Origin: Escherichia coli
Lineage (GTDB): Bacteria; Pseudomonadota; Gammaproteobacteria; Enterobacterales; Enterobacteriaceae
Assembly (NCBI RefSeq): GCF_022846255.1
Contig: NZ_AP025682.1
Direction: 5' to 3' (one strand)
Length of the DNA stretch: 64,000 bases
Shown here in pieces: positions 26,521 to 35,761 of the stretch; position 1 is the first letter of the stretch; every line of letters begins with the position of its first letter. A program made the translations under genes and the position numbers. Below the pieces are notes generated by a model. That model was given only the letters and a program-made list of their open reading frames with translations, was not told the DNA's origin and ran no database searches.

Positions 26521-27210
26521 CTACCCATGCTTCCTATATGTCTGCGGCATGCTCCCAATAACCTTACCGAAGATGAACACCCGGTTCATCTCGTCTTTCT
26601 CGATCGGGTCCCACGGTGAGTAGCTTTTGTTATCAGAGATGACCAGCAGCTTATCCTTCATCATTTGCAGGCGCTTTACATGGGCTGTGTCGTCGTACAG
26701 AAACGCATAGATACCATCACCGTCGAAAGATTTAACTGTGATATCAACGAACAGCAGATCACCTGGTTCGATCGTTCCTGACATGCTGTCACCACGCACG
26801 TTAATGATGCGGATATTTTCCGCCTTCCTACCATCGAACATGTGACGAGCATCGTCAAACGAGTACTCAACCGAGCGTAGAACTTCTACAAACTCACGGT
26901 TGATGACTCCCGGCCCAGCACTGACTTCTATATCAAGAACGTCAATCTTAAAGTATTTGGAATGGCTGACAGTTGATAGTATTGGTTGCACTGTACTGTC
27001 TGACATATTTCCAACGCCAGAAGATAACCATTCTGCGCGCACACCCAAAGCGTTCGCGATCTCCACGATTTTAGTTGTTTGATTAGCTTTCCCTGTTTCG
27101 ATTTTCTGAATAGCAGCCTGGCTAACCCCGACCAAATCCCCAAGCGCCTTTTGTGTAAGGCCTCGCGCTAATCTGGCTTCTTTAAGTCTTTCTGAGAGTG
27201 TTGTTTTCAT
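26521..27210 (-). CDS. CI-like prophage repressor (HTH_XRE plus S24 LexA-like peptidase)
   Basis: 229 aa from MKTTLSERLKEARL; C-terminal domain with GDSM motif; divergent from cro-like gene. Confidence 0.85.
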   Translation of the reverse strand: MKTTLSERLKEARLARGLTQKALGDLVGVSQAAIQKIETGKANQTTKIVEIANALGVRAEWLSSGVGNMSDSTVQPILSTVSHSKYFKIDVLDIEVSAGPGVINREFVEVLRSVEYSFDDARHMFDGRKAENIRIINVRGDSMSGTIEPGDLLFVDITVKSFDGDGIYAFLYDDTAHVKRLQMMKDKLLVISDNKSYSPWDPIEKDEMNRVFIFGKVIGSMPQTYRKHG

Positions 27211-27251
27211 AGTCCAAATGTACAACCAAGGTTTTATTCCATCAAACGAAA

Positions 27252-27277
27252 ATGGTTGTTGACTAAAAAACAACCAT
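27252..27277. promoter_or_regulatory. OR-like operator palindrome overlapping putative PR -35 TTGACT
   Basis: perfect inverted repeat ATGGTTGTT-N8-AACAACCAT between the divergent cI-like and cro-like genes. Confidence 0.5.
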
Positions 27278-27615: not shown

Positions 27616-28155
27616 ATGCAACCACTTACATACCAACAGACTAGCGGATTTAGCCCGACTGCGGTGATAAATCGTTCTCAAACAAAACAGGCGCCAGGCC
27701 ACGAAAAAATCCGTGATGCCGTTCGCGCCTGGTCGGCTGCAGATAATCAGGATGTTGTTGCCGCACTCATTGTGAATGAGTATCGGGAGCAGGGCGGCGG
27801 CACCATCGATTTCCCTGATGATGTCAGCCGTGCACGCCAGAAGCTGTTCCGCTTCCTCGATAACAAATTCGATTCTGAAAAATACCGAAATAACGTGCGT
27901 GAACTGACCCCGGCAATTCTGGCGGTACTACCGCTGGAATATCGCGGCCACCTGGTTGAGCAGGATAGCTTCATGGCTCGGTTGGCTGAAATGGATAAGG
28001 AACTCAGTGAGGCAAAGCAGGCGGTCATTCTCAACGCACCACGCCACCAGAAACTGAAGGAAATGAGTGAAGGTATTGTGTCGATGTTTCGTGTGGACCC
28101 GGATCTGGCTGGTCCATTAATGGCGATGGTTACCACCATGCTGGGGGCAATATGA
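27616..28155 (+). CDS. YdaT-like (CII-position) regulatory protein
   Basis: 179 aa; assignment mainly from the racR-ydaS-ydaT-like gene order. Confidence 0.4.
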   Translation: MQPLTYQQTSGFSPTAVINRSQTKQAPGHEKIRDAVRAWSAADNQDVVAALIVNEYREQGGGTIDFPDDVSRARQKLFRFLDNKFDSEKYRNNVRELTPAILAVLPLEYRGHLVEQDSFMARLAEMDKELSEAKQAVILNAPRHQKLKEMSEGIVSMFRVDPDLAGPLMAMVTTMLGAI

Positions 28156-28241
28156 CAGGTTCAGAAATGGCGAAAGCCGGTCTGCGGGAACAGAGCCGAC
28201 TTTCAGGTGCAAATCGTAACGCACTCATTGCGGAAGGAATT

Positions 28242-29171
28242 ATGGCAAACACTGCTGAGATATTCAATTTTCCAGTGCCGGATGAGGCACAAAAGGAGCC
28301 GCGCGTGGCAGATCTCGATGATGGTTATACGCGCATTGCAAATGAGTTGCTGGAAGCTGTGATGCTGGCCGGATTAACACAGCACCAGCTTCTGGTCTTC
28401 CTGGCTGTCATGCGCAAAACATATGGCTTTAATAAAAAACTGGATTGGGTGAGCAACGAGCAACTGTCCGAATTGACCGGGATATTGCCGCACAAGTGTT
28501 CTGCTGCAAAAAGTGTTCTGGTAAAGCGTGGGATTTTGATTCAGAGCGGGCGGAATATCGGTATTAATAATGTGGTCAGTGAATGGGCAACATTACCCGA
28601 ATCAGGTAAGAAAAATAAAGTTTACCTGAAAGAGGTAAATTTACCTGAATCAGGTAAGAAAAGTTTACCCAAATCAGGTAAAGGCGTTTACCCGAATCAG
28701 GTAAACACAAAAGACAAACTAACAAAAGACAATATAAAACCTTTTTCGTCAGAGAATTCTGGCGAATCCTCTGACCAACCAGAAAACGATCTTCCTGTGG
28801 TGAAACCAGATGCTGCAATTCAGAGCGGCAGCAAGTGGGGGACAGCAGAAGACCTGACCGCCGCAGAGTGGATGTTTGACATGGTGAAGACCATCGCGCC
28901 ATCAGCCAGAAAACCGAATTTTGCAGGGTGGGCTAACGATATCCGCCTGATGCGTGAACGTGACGGACGTAACCACCGCGACATGTGCGTGCTGTTCCGC
29001 TGGGCATGCCAGGACAACTTCTGGTCCGGTAACGTGCTGAGTCCGGCCAAACTCCGCGACAAGTGGACCCAGCTCGAAATCAACCGAAACAAGCAACAGG
29101 CTGGCGTGACAGCCGGCAAACCAAAACTCGACCTGACGAACACTGACTGGATTTACGGGGTGGATTTATGA
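28242..29171 (+). CDS. O: replication initiator O
   Basis: lambda O-like N-terminus (VADLDDGY) and C-terminus (DLTNTDWIYGVDL); iterons inside the gene. Confidence 0.9.
   Translation: MANTAEIFNFPVPDEAQKEPRVADLDDGYTRIANELLEAVMLAGLTQHQLLVFLAVMRKTYGFNKKLDWVSNEQLSELTGILPHKCSAAKSVLVKRGILIQSGRNIGINNVVSEWATLPESGKKNKVYLKEVNLPESGKKSLPKSGKGVYPNQVNTKDKLTKDNIKPFSSENSGESSDQPENDLPVVKPDAAIQSGSKWGTAEDLTAAEWMFDMVKTIAPSARKPNFAGWANDIRLMRERDGRNHRDMCVLFRWACQDNFWSGNVLSPAKLRDKWTQLEINRNKQQAGVTAGKPKLDLTNTDWIYGVDL
28592..28745. repeat. replication origin: five 19-bp iterons plus AT-rich tract
   Basis: TTTACC-N7-GGTAAA units at 28592, 28621, 28640, 28664 and 28687, followed by an A-rich tract. Confidence 0.7.
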
Positions 29172-29869
29172 AAAACATCGCCGCACAGATGGTTAACTTT
29201 GACCGTGAGCAGATGCGCCGGATCGCCAACAATATGCCGGAACAGTACGACGAAAAGCCGCACGTACAGCAGGTAGCGCAGATCATCAATGGTGTGTTCA
29301 GCCAGTTACTGGCAACTTTCCCTGCGAGCCTGGCTAACCGGGATCAGAACGAACTGAACGAAATCCGCCGCCAGTGGGTTCTGGCTTTCCGGGAAAACGG
29401 GATCACCACAATGGAACAGGTTAACGCAGGAATGCGCGTAGCCCGTCGGCAGAATCGACCATTCCTGCCATCACCCGGGCAGTTTGTTGCCTGGTGCCGG
29501 GAAGAAACATCCGTTACCGCCGGGCTGCCAAACGCCAGCGAGCTGGTTGATATGGTTTACGAGTATTGCCGGAAGCGTGGCCTGTATCCGGACGCAGAGT
29601 CTTATCCATGGAAATCAAACGCGCACTACTGGCTGGTTACCAACCTGTACCAGAACATGCGGGCCAATGCGCTGACTGACGCGGAATTACGGCGTAAAGC
29701 TGCCGATGAGCTGACCTGTATGACCGCGCGAATTAACCGTGGTGAGGCGATACCTGAACCAGTAAAACAACTTCCTGTCATGGGCGGTAGACCTCTAAAT
29801 CGTGCACAGGCTCTGGCGAAGATCGCAGAAATCAAAGCTAAGTTTGGGCTGAAAGGAGCAAGGGTATGA
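29168..29869 (+). CDS. P: replication protein P (DnaB loader)
   Basis: 233 aa, near-identical to lambda P as recalled. Confidence 0.95.
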   Translation: MKNIAAQMVNFDREQMRRIANNMPEQYDEKPHVQQVAQIINGVFSQLLATFPASLANRDQNELNEIRRQWVLAFRENGITTMEQVNAGMRVARRQNRPFLPSPGQFVAWCREETSVTAGLPNASELVDMVYEYCRKRGLYPDAESYPWKSNAHYWLVTNLYQNMRANALTDAELRRKAADELTCMTARINRGEAIPEPVKQLPVMGGRPLNRAQALAKIAEIKAKFGLKGARV

Positions 29870-30168: not shown

Positions 30169-30235
30169 TGAAACAGATGAGTTGAGTTCAAACTGTAGTA
30201 CAATTCTCTCCAGTTTGAACAGGAAAGAATATGCT

Positions 30236-30568
30236 ATGAATCCTTATATTTATCTTGGTGGTGCAATACTTGCAGAGGTCATTGGTACAACCTTAATGAA
30301 GTTTTCAGAAGGTTTTACACGGTTATGGCCATCTGTTGGTACAATTATTTGTTATTGTGCATCATTCTGGTTATTAGCTCAGACGCTGGCTTATATTCCT
30401 ACAGGGATTGCTTATGCTATCTGGTCAGGAGTCGGTATTGTCCTGATTAGCTTACTATCATGGGGATTTTTCGGCCAACGGCTGGACCTGCCAGCTATTA
30501 TAGGCATGATGTTGATTTGTGCCGGTGTGTTGGTTATTAATTTATTTTCACGAAGCACACCACATTAA
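30236..30568 (+). CDS. emrE: SMR-family multidrug efflux protein EmrE
   Basis: 110 aa from MNPYIYLGGAILAEVIGTTLMK, 4 TM; matches K-12 DLP12 EmrE as recalled. Confidence 0.9.
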   Translation: MNPYIYLGGAILAEVIGTTLMKFSEGFTRLWPSVGTIICYCASFWLLAQTLAYIPTGIAYAIWSGVGIVLISLLSWGFFGQRLDLPAIIGMMLICAGVLVINLFSRSTPH

Positions 30569-30626
30569 AAATAATTTCTTTTGAATCGAGTGAAATAGGT
30601 TAGCCCGCATAAGTGCGGGCTGCTTT

Positions 30627-31670
30627 TTACAGGTCAGCGTTTGTTTTTTGTTGTTGGGTAGCGGTTTTTATGGGGGTTCCCAGGTTTTTAGTAAACCACT
30701 CAACAACTCTGTTTATAATAATTGGCTGATACCATGTATTATCTCCATGCTCAGCCCCTTCTACCAGAACGTACTCAGCGTTATCGCCGTTCTTCTTCAA
30801 CATCCTGAATAGTTTGGCGCTTTGCTCAGGTGAAACCAGAGTGTCTTTGCTACCATGCATAATAAGAAATGGGGGGTTTACTCCTTTCATATGTCCGATT
30901 GGACTGGCGTTTAGCGCTTTTTCTTTTGACGCTGTTATGGGGGCTCCCGCAAAACTTCTGAATGCAGGGCCATTGATCATTAAGGCTTCGGTTACGGCAG
31001 GAGATCGATGAACCTCCTGCACAGATTCAGGGAACCCCTCGCCAATATTCAACAAGTCAGAAATCCCATAAAGTGTGGCAACTGCCTGAACATCTGCTGA
31101 TTGCTGAAGAAAGTCACCTTTATCAAAGGTTTTGTCACCATTTGTAGTTCCCATCATCTGGGCAAGCCATCCACCGGCAGAGTCACCCAGAACTCCGATT
31201 CTTTGAGGATCAATCCCATAATCGCTGGCATGTTCTCTCAAGTAACGTATTGCAGCTTTCCCATCCTCAACTGGTGCTGGAAATGTATCAGGAATTGTTC
31301 TGTATTCTACAGCGGCCACAACAAAACCAGCTTCAGCCAGAGCCATTCTCATTTCAATAAATTTGTCATGTTCAGAAGACATGAATCCGCCGCCGGGATA
31401 ATAAATAATGGCTGGTTTTAAATCATTTGTTCGTGGGACAAGAACTGACATGTGAAGCTGTCTGACAGAACGAGTTCCTTTTATCTGGGAATAAACAACA
31501 TCACCAATGAGATCGACCTGGTTTCTGGTCGGTGAAACACTAATGATATCTGCACCCGGGGTGTAACCAGGAAGATTAGTCTGGACAGGTGTTGCACAAC
31601 TCCCGACCGACATGGCCATTGACATACCATACAATAGTGTTGCAGATGATAATATCTTGTTAATTTTCAT
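30627..31670 (-). CDS. secreted esterase/lipase lipoprotein, HSL-type alpha/beta hydrolase
   Basis: 347 aa; signal peptide with lipobox SVGSC; oxyanion motif YYPGGGF; nucleophile elbow GDSAGG; C-terminal HGSKD and AEHGDN. Confidence 0.75.
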   Translation of the reverse strand: MKINKILSSATLLYGMSMAMSVGSCATPVQTNLPGYTPGADIISVSPTRNQVDLIGDVVYSQIKGTRSVRQLHMSVLVPRTNDLKPAIIYYPGGGFMSSEHDKFIEMRMALAEAGFVVAAVEYRTIPDTFPAPVEDGKAAIRYLREHASDYGIDPQRIGVLGDSAGGWLAQMMGTTNGDKTFDKGDFLQQSADVQAVATLYGISDLLNIGEGFPESVQEVHRSPAVTEALMINGPAFRSFAGAPITASKEKALNASPIGHMKGVNPPFLIMHGSKDTLVSPEQSAKLFRMLKKNGDNAEYVLVEGAEHGDNTWYQPIIINRVVEWFTKNLGTPIKTATQQQKTNADL

Positions 31671-33480: not shown

Positions 33481-33503
33481 CCTGATTTTTGTGGGGAAAG
33501 TTG

Positions 33504-33887
33504 ATGCGTGATATTCAGATGGTTCTTGAGCGTTGGGGGGCATGGGCGGCTAATAACCACGAGGATGTAACCTGGTCATCCATTGCTGCCGGTTTTAAGG
33601 GATTAATTCCTTCAAAAGTAAAGTCTCGCCCACAATGCTGTGATGATGACGCGATGATTGTTTGTGGATGTATGGCTCGCCTGAAAAAGAACAATAGCTA
33701 TTTGCATGATTTACTAGTGGATTATTATGTCGGGGGTATGACATTTATGTCACTGGCAAGTAAGCATTGTTGCTCTGATGGTTATATCGGGAAAAAGTTA
33801 CAGAAGGCTGAGGGAATAATTGAAGGGATGTTAATGGCATTAGATATACGGTTAGAGATGGATATCGTTGTTACTAAGTCTAATTAA
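33504..33887 (+). CDS. quuD: late-gene antiterminator Q
   Basis: 127 aa from [14 protein letters not shown]; matches DLP12 QuuD as recalled. Confidence 0.85.
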
Positions 33888-33914
33888 TACGCTAATTATT
33901 TACTAAGTGTTATT

Positions 33915-34068
33915 AAAAAAGGGGCGTAGAAACGCCCCCAAAAATAAAGGGTAATATATAACAGAAGGTTTATATAGTCAGAAGCAAGGTAGTGCTTCTA
34001 AAGGAAGTGGCTTGAGGGAGCCACTTATATGTTGGGGAGGTAAAGCCTCCCGCAACATATCTTTTTCG
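33915..34068. promoter_or_regulatory. late promoter / qut / terminator hairpin region
   Basis: several GC-rich hairpins (GGGGCGTAGAAACGCCCC, GAAGCAAGGTAGTGCTTC, GTGGCTTGAGGGAGCCAC, GGGAGGTAAAGCCTCCC) between Q and the convergent porin gene. Confidence 0.4.
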
Positions 34069-34076
34069 TAACCAGA

Positions 34077-35174
34077 TTAGAACTGGTAAACCAGTCCTAC
34101 GGCAACGATGTCGTCAGTGCTTACACCAAGTGCTTTAGTGAAGTCGTTTTTGTCAAGCAGGTTGATCTTGTAATCAACGAAAGTAGACATGTTTTTGTTG
34201 AAGTAATAAGTTGCACCTACATCAACATATTTGACTAAGTCCTGATCGCCCCATACTCCAAGATCCTTACCTTTAGATTGCAGGTAAGCAACGGACGGAC
34301 GCAGACCGAAATCGAACTGATATTGTGCAACAGCTTCGAAGTTTTGAGCTTTATTAGCAACGAAGTGATCAGCAAATACAGTCATATTCTGGGTTTCAGA
34401 ATAGGTAGTGGCCAGGTAAATGTTGTTAGCGTCATATTTCAGACCTGCGGCCCAAATTTCTGCATTTTTACCGGAAGCAAATACTTCAGGAAGAACTTTG
34501 CCTGCATTGACTTGAGTGTCGGTACGATCAGATTTCGCATAAGTCGCACCAATGCCGAATCCTTCGTATTCATAGGTAGCAGAGAAACCGAATCCATCAC
34601 CGTTACCTTCGGTGTAGTTATCGAAATCGCTACGATCGTTTTTACCTTGGTACTGAGCAGCAAAGTTCAGACCATCAACCAGACCAAAGAAGTCGTTGTT
34701 ACGGTAAGTTGCAACACCAGTTGCACGTTGAGTCATGAACACGTCGGTTTGAGTCCAAGTGTCACCACCGAATTCTGGCAGGACGTCAGTCCACGCACCG
34801 ATGTCGTATGCTACACCGTAGTTACGACCGTAATCGATGGAACCGTAGTCACCGAATTTCAGGCCTGCAAATGCAAGACGGGTTTTGTCTTTGGCGGAAC
34901 CTTGAGATTCAGCGCGGTTGCCTTTGAATTCATATTCCCACTGACCGAAACCAGTCAGTTGATCGTTGATTTGGGTTTCACCTTTGAAGCCCAGACGAAC
35001 ATAAGTAGTATCACCATCATCTGCATCGTTAGAGGAAAAGTAGTGCTTGGCATTAACTTTCCCGTACAGATCCAGCTTGTTACTGTCTTTATTATAAATT
35101 TCAGCTGCCTGAGCAGACATCGCCATCAGTACTGATGCAGCTACAGCAGAAATTGCCACTGTTAATTTTTTCAT
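34077..35174 (-). CDS. nmpC: outer-membrane general porin (NmpC/OmpC family), apparently intact
   Basis: 365 aa from [11 protein letters not shown]; signal peptide; C-terminal F; long AT-rich upstream region 35175-35716. Confidence 0.9.
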
Positions 35175-35761
35175 CGTGAGCCCTTTTTTTGAACTATTAT
35201 TAAAAAATGATGTCACTGCGCGATAAATATTCATCTAATCAATATGATTATTTCAAGATGTAAGTTTTAGTTTCTCATTTAATTTGTGAAGTAGATCTCT
35301 ATTTTTATCTGAACTTTTTCTATCGAAACCTATTTATGGCTCTTATTTGAACAAAAATAAACCTATTAGCTAATTTATATTAATGGCTGTTATTTATGGT
35401 GGTTCTATAATTCGGAAGTTTAATTTAAATCAACTAAAAATAACGTCGGAAATTATTTATTGGTTATTTGTTGAGGTTTTCTAATGTATTTGTGGTGGTG
35501 TTTTGAACACTCGGTAGCATTCTCATAAATATCATTCAGTGGTTTACGTACGTAAAAAATTGGTTATGCTGTTAAGAGTGGTTACTTCGTCACACAGCTT
35601 AAACCCGCCGTCGAGCTGGTTTTTCCATTTTTTGAGTCTCGATATTAGCTGATAACTCAATACCTGAGTTATTCACTGACTCCGAGTCTGTTACGTTTCT
35701 GCTTTTTTGCGATACGTTGTATTCCCTCAATTTACACCCGCTTTGTCTGCGAGGTGGGGTT

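Follow-up and report, generated by a model that had tools for sequence, protein, structure and literature searches.

The five dyad-symmetric repeats at 28592-28705 are very probably the origin at which a lambdoid prophage of the DLP12/phage-82-like kind begins to replicate; its plan is that of the lambda origin (ori), and it lies inside the gene for the initiator protein O. The window, meaning the whole 64,000-nucleotide stretch of Escherichia coli DNA that was analysed, combines the features of a lambdoid O-type origin: an array of iterons, its position in O, an A/T-rich tract, constraint at the DNA level and an adjoining helicase-loader gene. From its sequence this is a textbook kind of element, an ordinary member of the classical lambdoid O-iteron system, and the O/ori specificity appears to be distinct from that of lambda. 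The result is of little consequence beyond annotation, where it assigns 28592-28778 as the origin of a DLP12/82-like prophage, a type very common in E. coli. The features on which the argument is built are as follows.

26521-27273, minus strand, S24/HTH repressor gene, upstream of O
28152-29171, plus strand, O gene, origin-specific initiator (Pfam Phage_rep_O, E = 1.5e-34)
about 28242-28586, N-domain of O
about 28587-28745, origin-bearing linker of O
28592-28610, iteron 1, ATTACCCGAATCAGGTAAG, promoter-proximal extra unit, 29 bp upstream of unit 2
28621-28639, iteron 2, TTTACCTGAAAGAGGTAAA, in frame V-Y-L-K-E-V-N
28640-28658, iteron 3, TTTACCTGAATCAGGTAAG, in frame L-P-E-S-G-K
28664-28682, iteron 4, TTTACCCAAATCAGGTAAA, in frame L-P-K-S-G-K
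28687-28705, iteron 5, TTTACCCGAATCAGGTAAA, in frame V-Y-P-N-Q-V-N, abutting the A-rich tract
28706-28745, plus strand, A-rich low-GC tract, CACAAAAGACAAACTAACAAAAGACAATATAAAACC..., 25% GC, AT skew up to +0.77
28745-28759 and 28764-28778, inverted repeat TTCGTCAGAGAATTC / GAATCCTCTGACCAA, 87% complementary
about 28746-29168, lambda-type C-terminal half of O
29168-29869, plus strand, P gene, DnaB helicase loader (Pfam Phage_lambda_P, E = 8e-62)

The array consists of five 19-bp units with the dyad TTACC-N7-GGTAA, found from 28592 onward as in an earlier, sequence-only reading of the window. That reading put the spacing of the units at about 22 bp; the measured start-to-start distances are 29, 19, 24 and 23 bp and are not uniform. 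It also gave the dyad as TTTACC-N7-GGTAAA, of which the inner TTACC-N7-GGTAA is invariant among relatives, whereas the outer T and the outer A are conserved only to 65% and 57%. When the longer form was searched for with at most one mismatch, the 64-kb window gave four matches, every one in the array, against 0.13 expected in the shuffled window (0 of 100 shuffles reached four); iteron 1 has two mismatches to this form. The dyad centre, YGAAWCA, is conserved and non-palindromic. Folding of the array as single-stranded DNA revealed strong hairpin/cruciform potential (z = -6.7), a trivial consequence of the dyads that is not counted as functional evidence. Reading the repeats as promoters was dropped when a promoter and terminator scan gave nothing inside the array. 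An Rfam scan of the origin region returned no RNA family; the only Rfam match in the window is IS009 (60749-60947, plus strand, 229 bits, full length), inside a tail-fibre-assembly ORF (60406-60990).

Directly to the right of the last iteron lies the 40-bp A-rich tract, as the earlier reading had it, and the interval 28700-28749 likewise has 25% GC. By analogy with lambda, the tract is presumed to be the site of initial strand opening. Its motif, CACAAAAGACA...ACAAAAGA, is common to lambda, P22, HK97, SEN34 and a Klebsiella phage, the phi80 version being more divergent. The inverted repeat at 28745-28778 has its homologue in the palindrome on the right of lambda ori, and it is at this inverted repeat that homology to lambda O resumes.

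The O open reading frame has 339 aa from its first ATG and 309 aa from the lambda-equivalent start, Met31, at 28242. The Pfam Phage_rep_O match covers residues 51-145 of the longer form, and the array spans codons 117-155 of the 309-aa frame, which places it, as had been proposed, in the linker-coding part of the gene between the Phage_rep_O domain and the lambda-like C-terminal half. O is 67% identical to lambda O overall, with about 49% identity in the N-domain and about 98% in the C-terminal half (from about residue 165). The P gene adjoins O downstream, its start overlapping the O stop codon, and its product shares 226 of 233 residues (97%) with lambda P, bearing out its description as essentially lambda P; a ren-like gene is 92% identical to that of lambda. 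The start of O is ambiguous: PGAP-style annotation takes the upstream ATG at 28152 (339 aa), overlapping the YdaT stop, while the O homologues of lambda, P22 and Klebsiella phages all start at the Met31 equivalent, and both the 309- and 339-aa forms are found in protein databases. A sigma-70-like site on the minus strand (28239-28267; TTGAAT-17-CATAAT with an upstream TG) overlaps the Met31 start codon and occupies the place of the lambda oop promoter pO; nothing in the DNA downstream of it resembles the oop RNA of lambda or the oop terminator.

The prophage that carries these genes is a DLP12-type lambdoid. Upstream of O are a YdaS-type cro-like gene and a YdaT-type gene, and downstream of P follow emrE, an esterase gene, NinB-like and Q genes, a porin gene and lambda-like head and tail genes. 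The 26 bp at 27252-27277, ATGGTTGTTGACTAAAAAACAACCAT, are a palindrome able to form a hairpin; they lie at the 5' end of the cI-like repressor ORF, just upstream of the YdaS-type gene, and could be an operator/promoter element. Cargo genes occupy the stretch between ren and the nin region (30182-31670): emrE, for SMR efflux, on the plus strand and, convergent with it on the minus strand, the gene for a 347-aa esterase (BD-FAE/alpha-beta-hydrolase); emrE is followed by ybcK in K-12 and FDAARGOS_497 and by the esterase in the window. At 33489-35234 the Q antiterminator (Pfam Phage_antitermQ) precedes a convergent porin gene (Porin_1, 385 aa), an order that corresponds to the nmpC/lc/OmpD-type arrangement of DLP12-like phages and is common to the isolated phages that share the O/ori module. 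The left prophage boundary (19000-22000) abuts a host LysR gene (20829-21713) and a PACE-transporter gene (20267-20725), and the E. coli genomes that come nearest to it at this junction (99.2-99.4% identity) belong to isolates from soil and water. A related E. coli genome has the same prophage block as part of a complete-looking prophage at the argU/intD locus.

It is improbable, to our minds, that the origin is an inactive relic, that is, part of a defective prophage in which it no longer fires despite its intact-looking sequence. Such a reading can draw on the left prophage end in the window, where no integrase, tRNA gene or tRNA attachment site was seen; for want of an integrase there, this particular copy may be unable to excise. 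It can also draw on the cargo (emrE, esterase and porin) that interrupts the early-right region and on some near-identical copies elsewhere that have a truncated O and altered unit numbers. O (309/339 aa) and P are intact in the window, however, as is each of the five units, and the window also has the repressor, the cro-like gene, Q, the genes for lysis and a complete head-tail set. Moreover, the same O/ori module occurs, 97-99% identical, in 15 phage genome records, the closest being PhiR30_1 (99%) and the 14 others 97-98% identical; among them are 4A7, Lambda_4C10, Perceval, Turner, 1W, 3W and the PhiR series. Its presence in these records is indirect support for the module working in living phage.

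An origin should be constrained as DNA, and the repeats could in principle owe their existence to the protein instead. In this alternative, a peptide repeat in the flexible linker of O (LPESGKK-like) would be kept for a protein-level reason and the periodicity of the DNA would be its by-product, as might be supposed from units 1, 3 and 4, which encode the similar L-P-E/K-S-G-K. In units 2 and 5, however, the reading frame is shifted by one base relative to the same DNA motif, giving V-Y-x-x-x-V-N; since the iterons are read in two frames, the repeated entity is the DNA, and the iterons of lambda are likewise frame-independent. Relatives were fetched from IMG/VR with the 17-mer TTACCCGAATCAGGTAA, giving 70 distinct sequences that align to the window without gaps over 515 bp and fall into two groups, one more than 95% and the other about 75-85% identical to it. 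Mean pairwise diversity was 0.010 in the 50 half-site columns and 0.004 at half-site third codon positions, compared with 0.093 in the dyad centres and 0.21 in the spacers between units; in the N-domain it was 0.06 at codon positions 1 and 2 and 0.242 at third positions. The half-site bases are almost invariant at any codon position. In the spacer codons variation is the same at each of the three positions, a sign that the protein constrains them little. Frame alternation and the codon-position pattern together exclude the peptide-repeat reading, to which we assign almost no probability, and the half-sites are under DNA-level purifying selection.

Because the fetch pattern was derived from an iteron, conservation is biased upward for the units that match it, a bias mitigated by unit 2 and by a second set ascertained through protein. 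Unit 2 never equals the fetch pattern, and its half-site diversity is still 0.003 (70 sequences); unit 4, with a half-site diversity of 0.000, equals it in no more than 24 of the 70 rows. In the relatives with five units, the half-site diversity of iteron 1 is 0.04. The second set comprises 80 loci found via the N-domain protein, whose members are 97-100% identical and so useful for unit number, not for divergence. Five units at 29/19/24/23 were found in 74 of these loci, 71 of them with a complete 309-aa O and three running off the end of the locus. Iteron copy number ranges from 4 to 7 among relatives (loci L124, L128, L023, L073, L079 and the L132-L211 set). The few near-identical E. coli copies with 4 or 7 units have a truncated O; in one of them the O frame is shifted by a 43-bp duplication that takes in units 2 and 3. 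More distant lineages have stable 4-unit arrays that lack unit 1.

If the array is the origin, the DNA-binding part of O should travel with it. A segment G(I/M)L(P/S)HKCSAAK is common to the proteins that adjoin TTACC-N7-GGTAA arrays. The C-terminal halves of these proteins differ, with at least four types told apart by reading the sequences (lambda-like, phi80-like, P22-gp18-like and one or more from Klebsiella phages), yet the LPHKCSAAK helix accompanies the iterons in all of them; when four examples were scanned, the N-domain was the only part that Pfam recognised. As judged from these sequences, the N-domain and its iterons are co-inherited as one unit while the C-terminal domain is swapped, which makes the module a clean natural example of modular lambdoid initiators, with the helicase-loader-binding domain exchanged at the A-rich tract. 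A search of the PDB with the O sequence returned no solved relative. An AlphaFold model of the N-domain, built on a shallow alignment of 15 sequences, has a mean pLDDT of 77, rising above 90 over residues 70-110 (helix-turn-helix and wing), and its helix-helix-strand-helix-helix-hairpin topology is that of a predicted winged helix-turn-helix. The nearest solved folds are the dimeric CRP/FNR and MarR DNA-binding domains, a weak match (best E = 3e-3, TM about 0.45). Residues 83-95 (PHKCSAAKSVLVK) occupy the position of the recognition helix in this model; the recognition-helix stretch, O residues 80-95, corresponds to 28479-28526 of the window (loci L003, L007). LPHKCSAAK goes with TTACC-N7-GGTAA in all relatives seen, and in SEN34 and HK97, where HHTH(C/V) replaces LPHK, the half-sites are TTAGC-N7-GCTAA, with one base changed. 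This pairing is consistent with the helix reading the half-site and, coming from few lineages, is a lead only.

The same observations leave scarcely any room for the dyads being operators of a protein other than O (the prophage repressor, YdaS/YdaT or a host factor), for although dyad-symmetric sites of 17-19 bp are typical of many HTH regulators, these sites are co-inherited with the N-domain of O and not with the immunity region (Klebsiella phage RCIP0034, with the same iterons and N-domain, has annotated cro/cII adjoining them where the window has YdaS/YdaT-type genes), their position, spacing and flanks match the lambda and P22 origins, and SEN34 and HK97, with the HHTH helix, have the altered half-sites (TTAGC) at the same place.

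Taking the array as the O-dependent origin, its mode of action can be proposed from the lambda model of O/ori initiation (PMC5043065, PMC6022878, PMC7466680). By that analogy O would bind the dyads, the A-rich tract would unwind and P would be recruited. Transcription from the early rightward promoter would supply O and P, and O dimers would bind each TTACC-N7-GGTAA dyad via the winged-helix N-terminal domain, whose predicted recognition helix includes ...LPHKCSAAKSVLVK.... The five bound and bent sites would then assemble an O-some on supercoiled DNA, which would destabilise the adjoining 40-bp A-rich tract. The lambda-type C-terminal half of O would bring the P-DnaB complex to the opened DNA, and the release of DnaB by host chaperones would lead to bidirectional theta replication.

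The module is common. A 3.3-kb block from the cro-like gene to emrE is present, at a threshold of at least 80% coverage, in at least 1129 of 5426 complete E. coli genomes; the exact 339-aa O protein occurs on 596 contigs, and the 90%-identity cluster of O has 7825 members, with names that include 'replication protein' and 'Origin specific replication initiation factor'. Since the module is so widespread and its sequence has been determined many times over, the arrangement cannot be called new. The records inspected carry no annotation of an origin in this module and label the gene only 'replication protein', and a full-text search for the iteron strings in the papers available returned no match.

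The origin in the window may be of the classical phage 82 type. The phage 82 origin, ori82, is said to have five iterons, and its O protein reportedly combines a type-specific N-terminus with a C-terminus compatible with lambda P. Twelve listed phages with the O/ori of the window also carry the YbcN-RusA-Q-porin region typical of DLP12, and the YbcN of DLP12 is 97% identical to its phage 82 counterpart (PMC4118853). Among the database matches to the module there was no record named for phage 82, the protein database and cluster look-up gave only generic names, and a literature search for the phage 82 origin (ori82, lambda-82) found only mentions in reference lists. There is a lesser chance that TTACC-N7-GGTAA/LPHKCSAAK represents an experimentally uncharacterised O/ori class, neither lambda, phi80, 82 nor P22, that is orthogonal to lambda O and uses lambda P; we regard this as a tentative idea and would sooner doubt it than adopt it. 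Were it true, nature would offer, in the paired changes from LPHK to HHTH and from TTACC to TTAGC, a readable switch of specificity with which compatible lambda-type replicons could be engineered. A replicon with a second specificity, still dependent on lambda P, could be made from the module.

Comparison with known origins places the window within a shared architecture. An alignment of the window with lambda, P22, HK97, SEN34, phi80 and one Klebsiella phage showed in every case a type-specific dyad array followed by the CACAAAAGACA...ACAAAAGA motif, with the palindrome TCGTC.GAGAATTCTG.CGAATCCTCTGAC coming next in the phages that have a lambda- or phi80-type partner. In its architecture the origin in the window is collinear with the iterons annotated in lambda and 434 and with the P22 origin as annotated. 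The claim that the window has the lambda ori arrangement with a different iteron sequence is upheld by this alignment: the order of iterons, A-rich tract and palindrome is the same, also with respect to phi80, while the iteron sequences differ and the half-sites are unrelated to those of lambda. In related systems, O-like proteins bind their own iterons within their own coding region (PMC8022706, PMC5043065, PMC7466680). The iteron types compared are the following.

lambda, TCCCTC...GAGGGA
phi80, TTCCCGAAAACGGGAA
HK97 and SEN34, TTAGC-N7-GCTAA
P22, TTTACC-N5-GGTAAA
window, TTACC-N7-GGTAA

Like the window array, the lambda origin lies inside O between the DNA-binding and the P-binding halves and has dyad-symmetric iterons of 18-19 bp, with a spacing of 20/24/23 compared with 19/24/23 for the last four units of the window; the A-rich motif and the right-hand palindrome are shared, as are the C-terminal half of O and P at the identities given above. 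The two differ in their half-sites (TTACC/GGTAA in the window and TCCCTC/GAGGGA in lambda) and in unit number, lambda having four and no counterpart of unit 1 of the window. They differ also in the N-domain of O and in the genes upstream, cro and cII in lambda where the window has YdaS/YdaT-type genes. Assignment to the lambda/434/21 ori specificity class, with its ATCCCTCAAAACGAGGGA-type iterons, was rejected on the unrelated half-sites and the N-domain identity of only about 49%.

The gene 18 origin of P22 is close in other respects. Its half-sites are nearly the same (TTTACC...GGTAAA), it has 20/24/23 spacing and the A-rich motif, and no experimentally known relative is closer to the DNA-binding half of O than its N-domain, which is 59% identical. 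Unlike the window, P22 has four units with a dyad centre of 5 bp rather than 7, and the C-terminal half of gp18 and its partner gp12 (a DnaB-type helicase) are unrelated to the C-terminal half of lambda O and to P. The P22 gene-18 ori specificity class was likewise set aside, given the difference in the dyad centre, the 59% identity of the N-domain and the lambda-type C-domain and partner in the window.

The origins of phi80 (gene 15/14), HK97 and SEN34 have the same architecture, with iterons at the same place in the gene. They differ from the window in iteron sequence, phi80 having TTCCCGAAAACGGGAA and HK97 and SEN34 having TTAGC-N7-GCTAA together with the HHTH recognition helix in place of LPHK. 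The six-iteron origin of the Stx phages 933W/P27 offers a parallel for the unit that lambda lacks: extra promoter-proximal iterons are set on a lambda-like four-unit core, with a longer O linker, and in P27 the extra iterons are weakly bound yet required (PMC7466680). Unit 1 of the window may be analogous to these extra iterons, and the conserved, offset fifth iteron might be an auxiliary/regulatory site, like iteron 1' of the Stx phages. Lambda O binds the iterons of the Stx phages, which have the lambda type of sequence, whereas those of the window belong to another sequence class.
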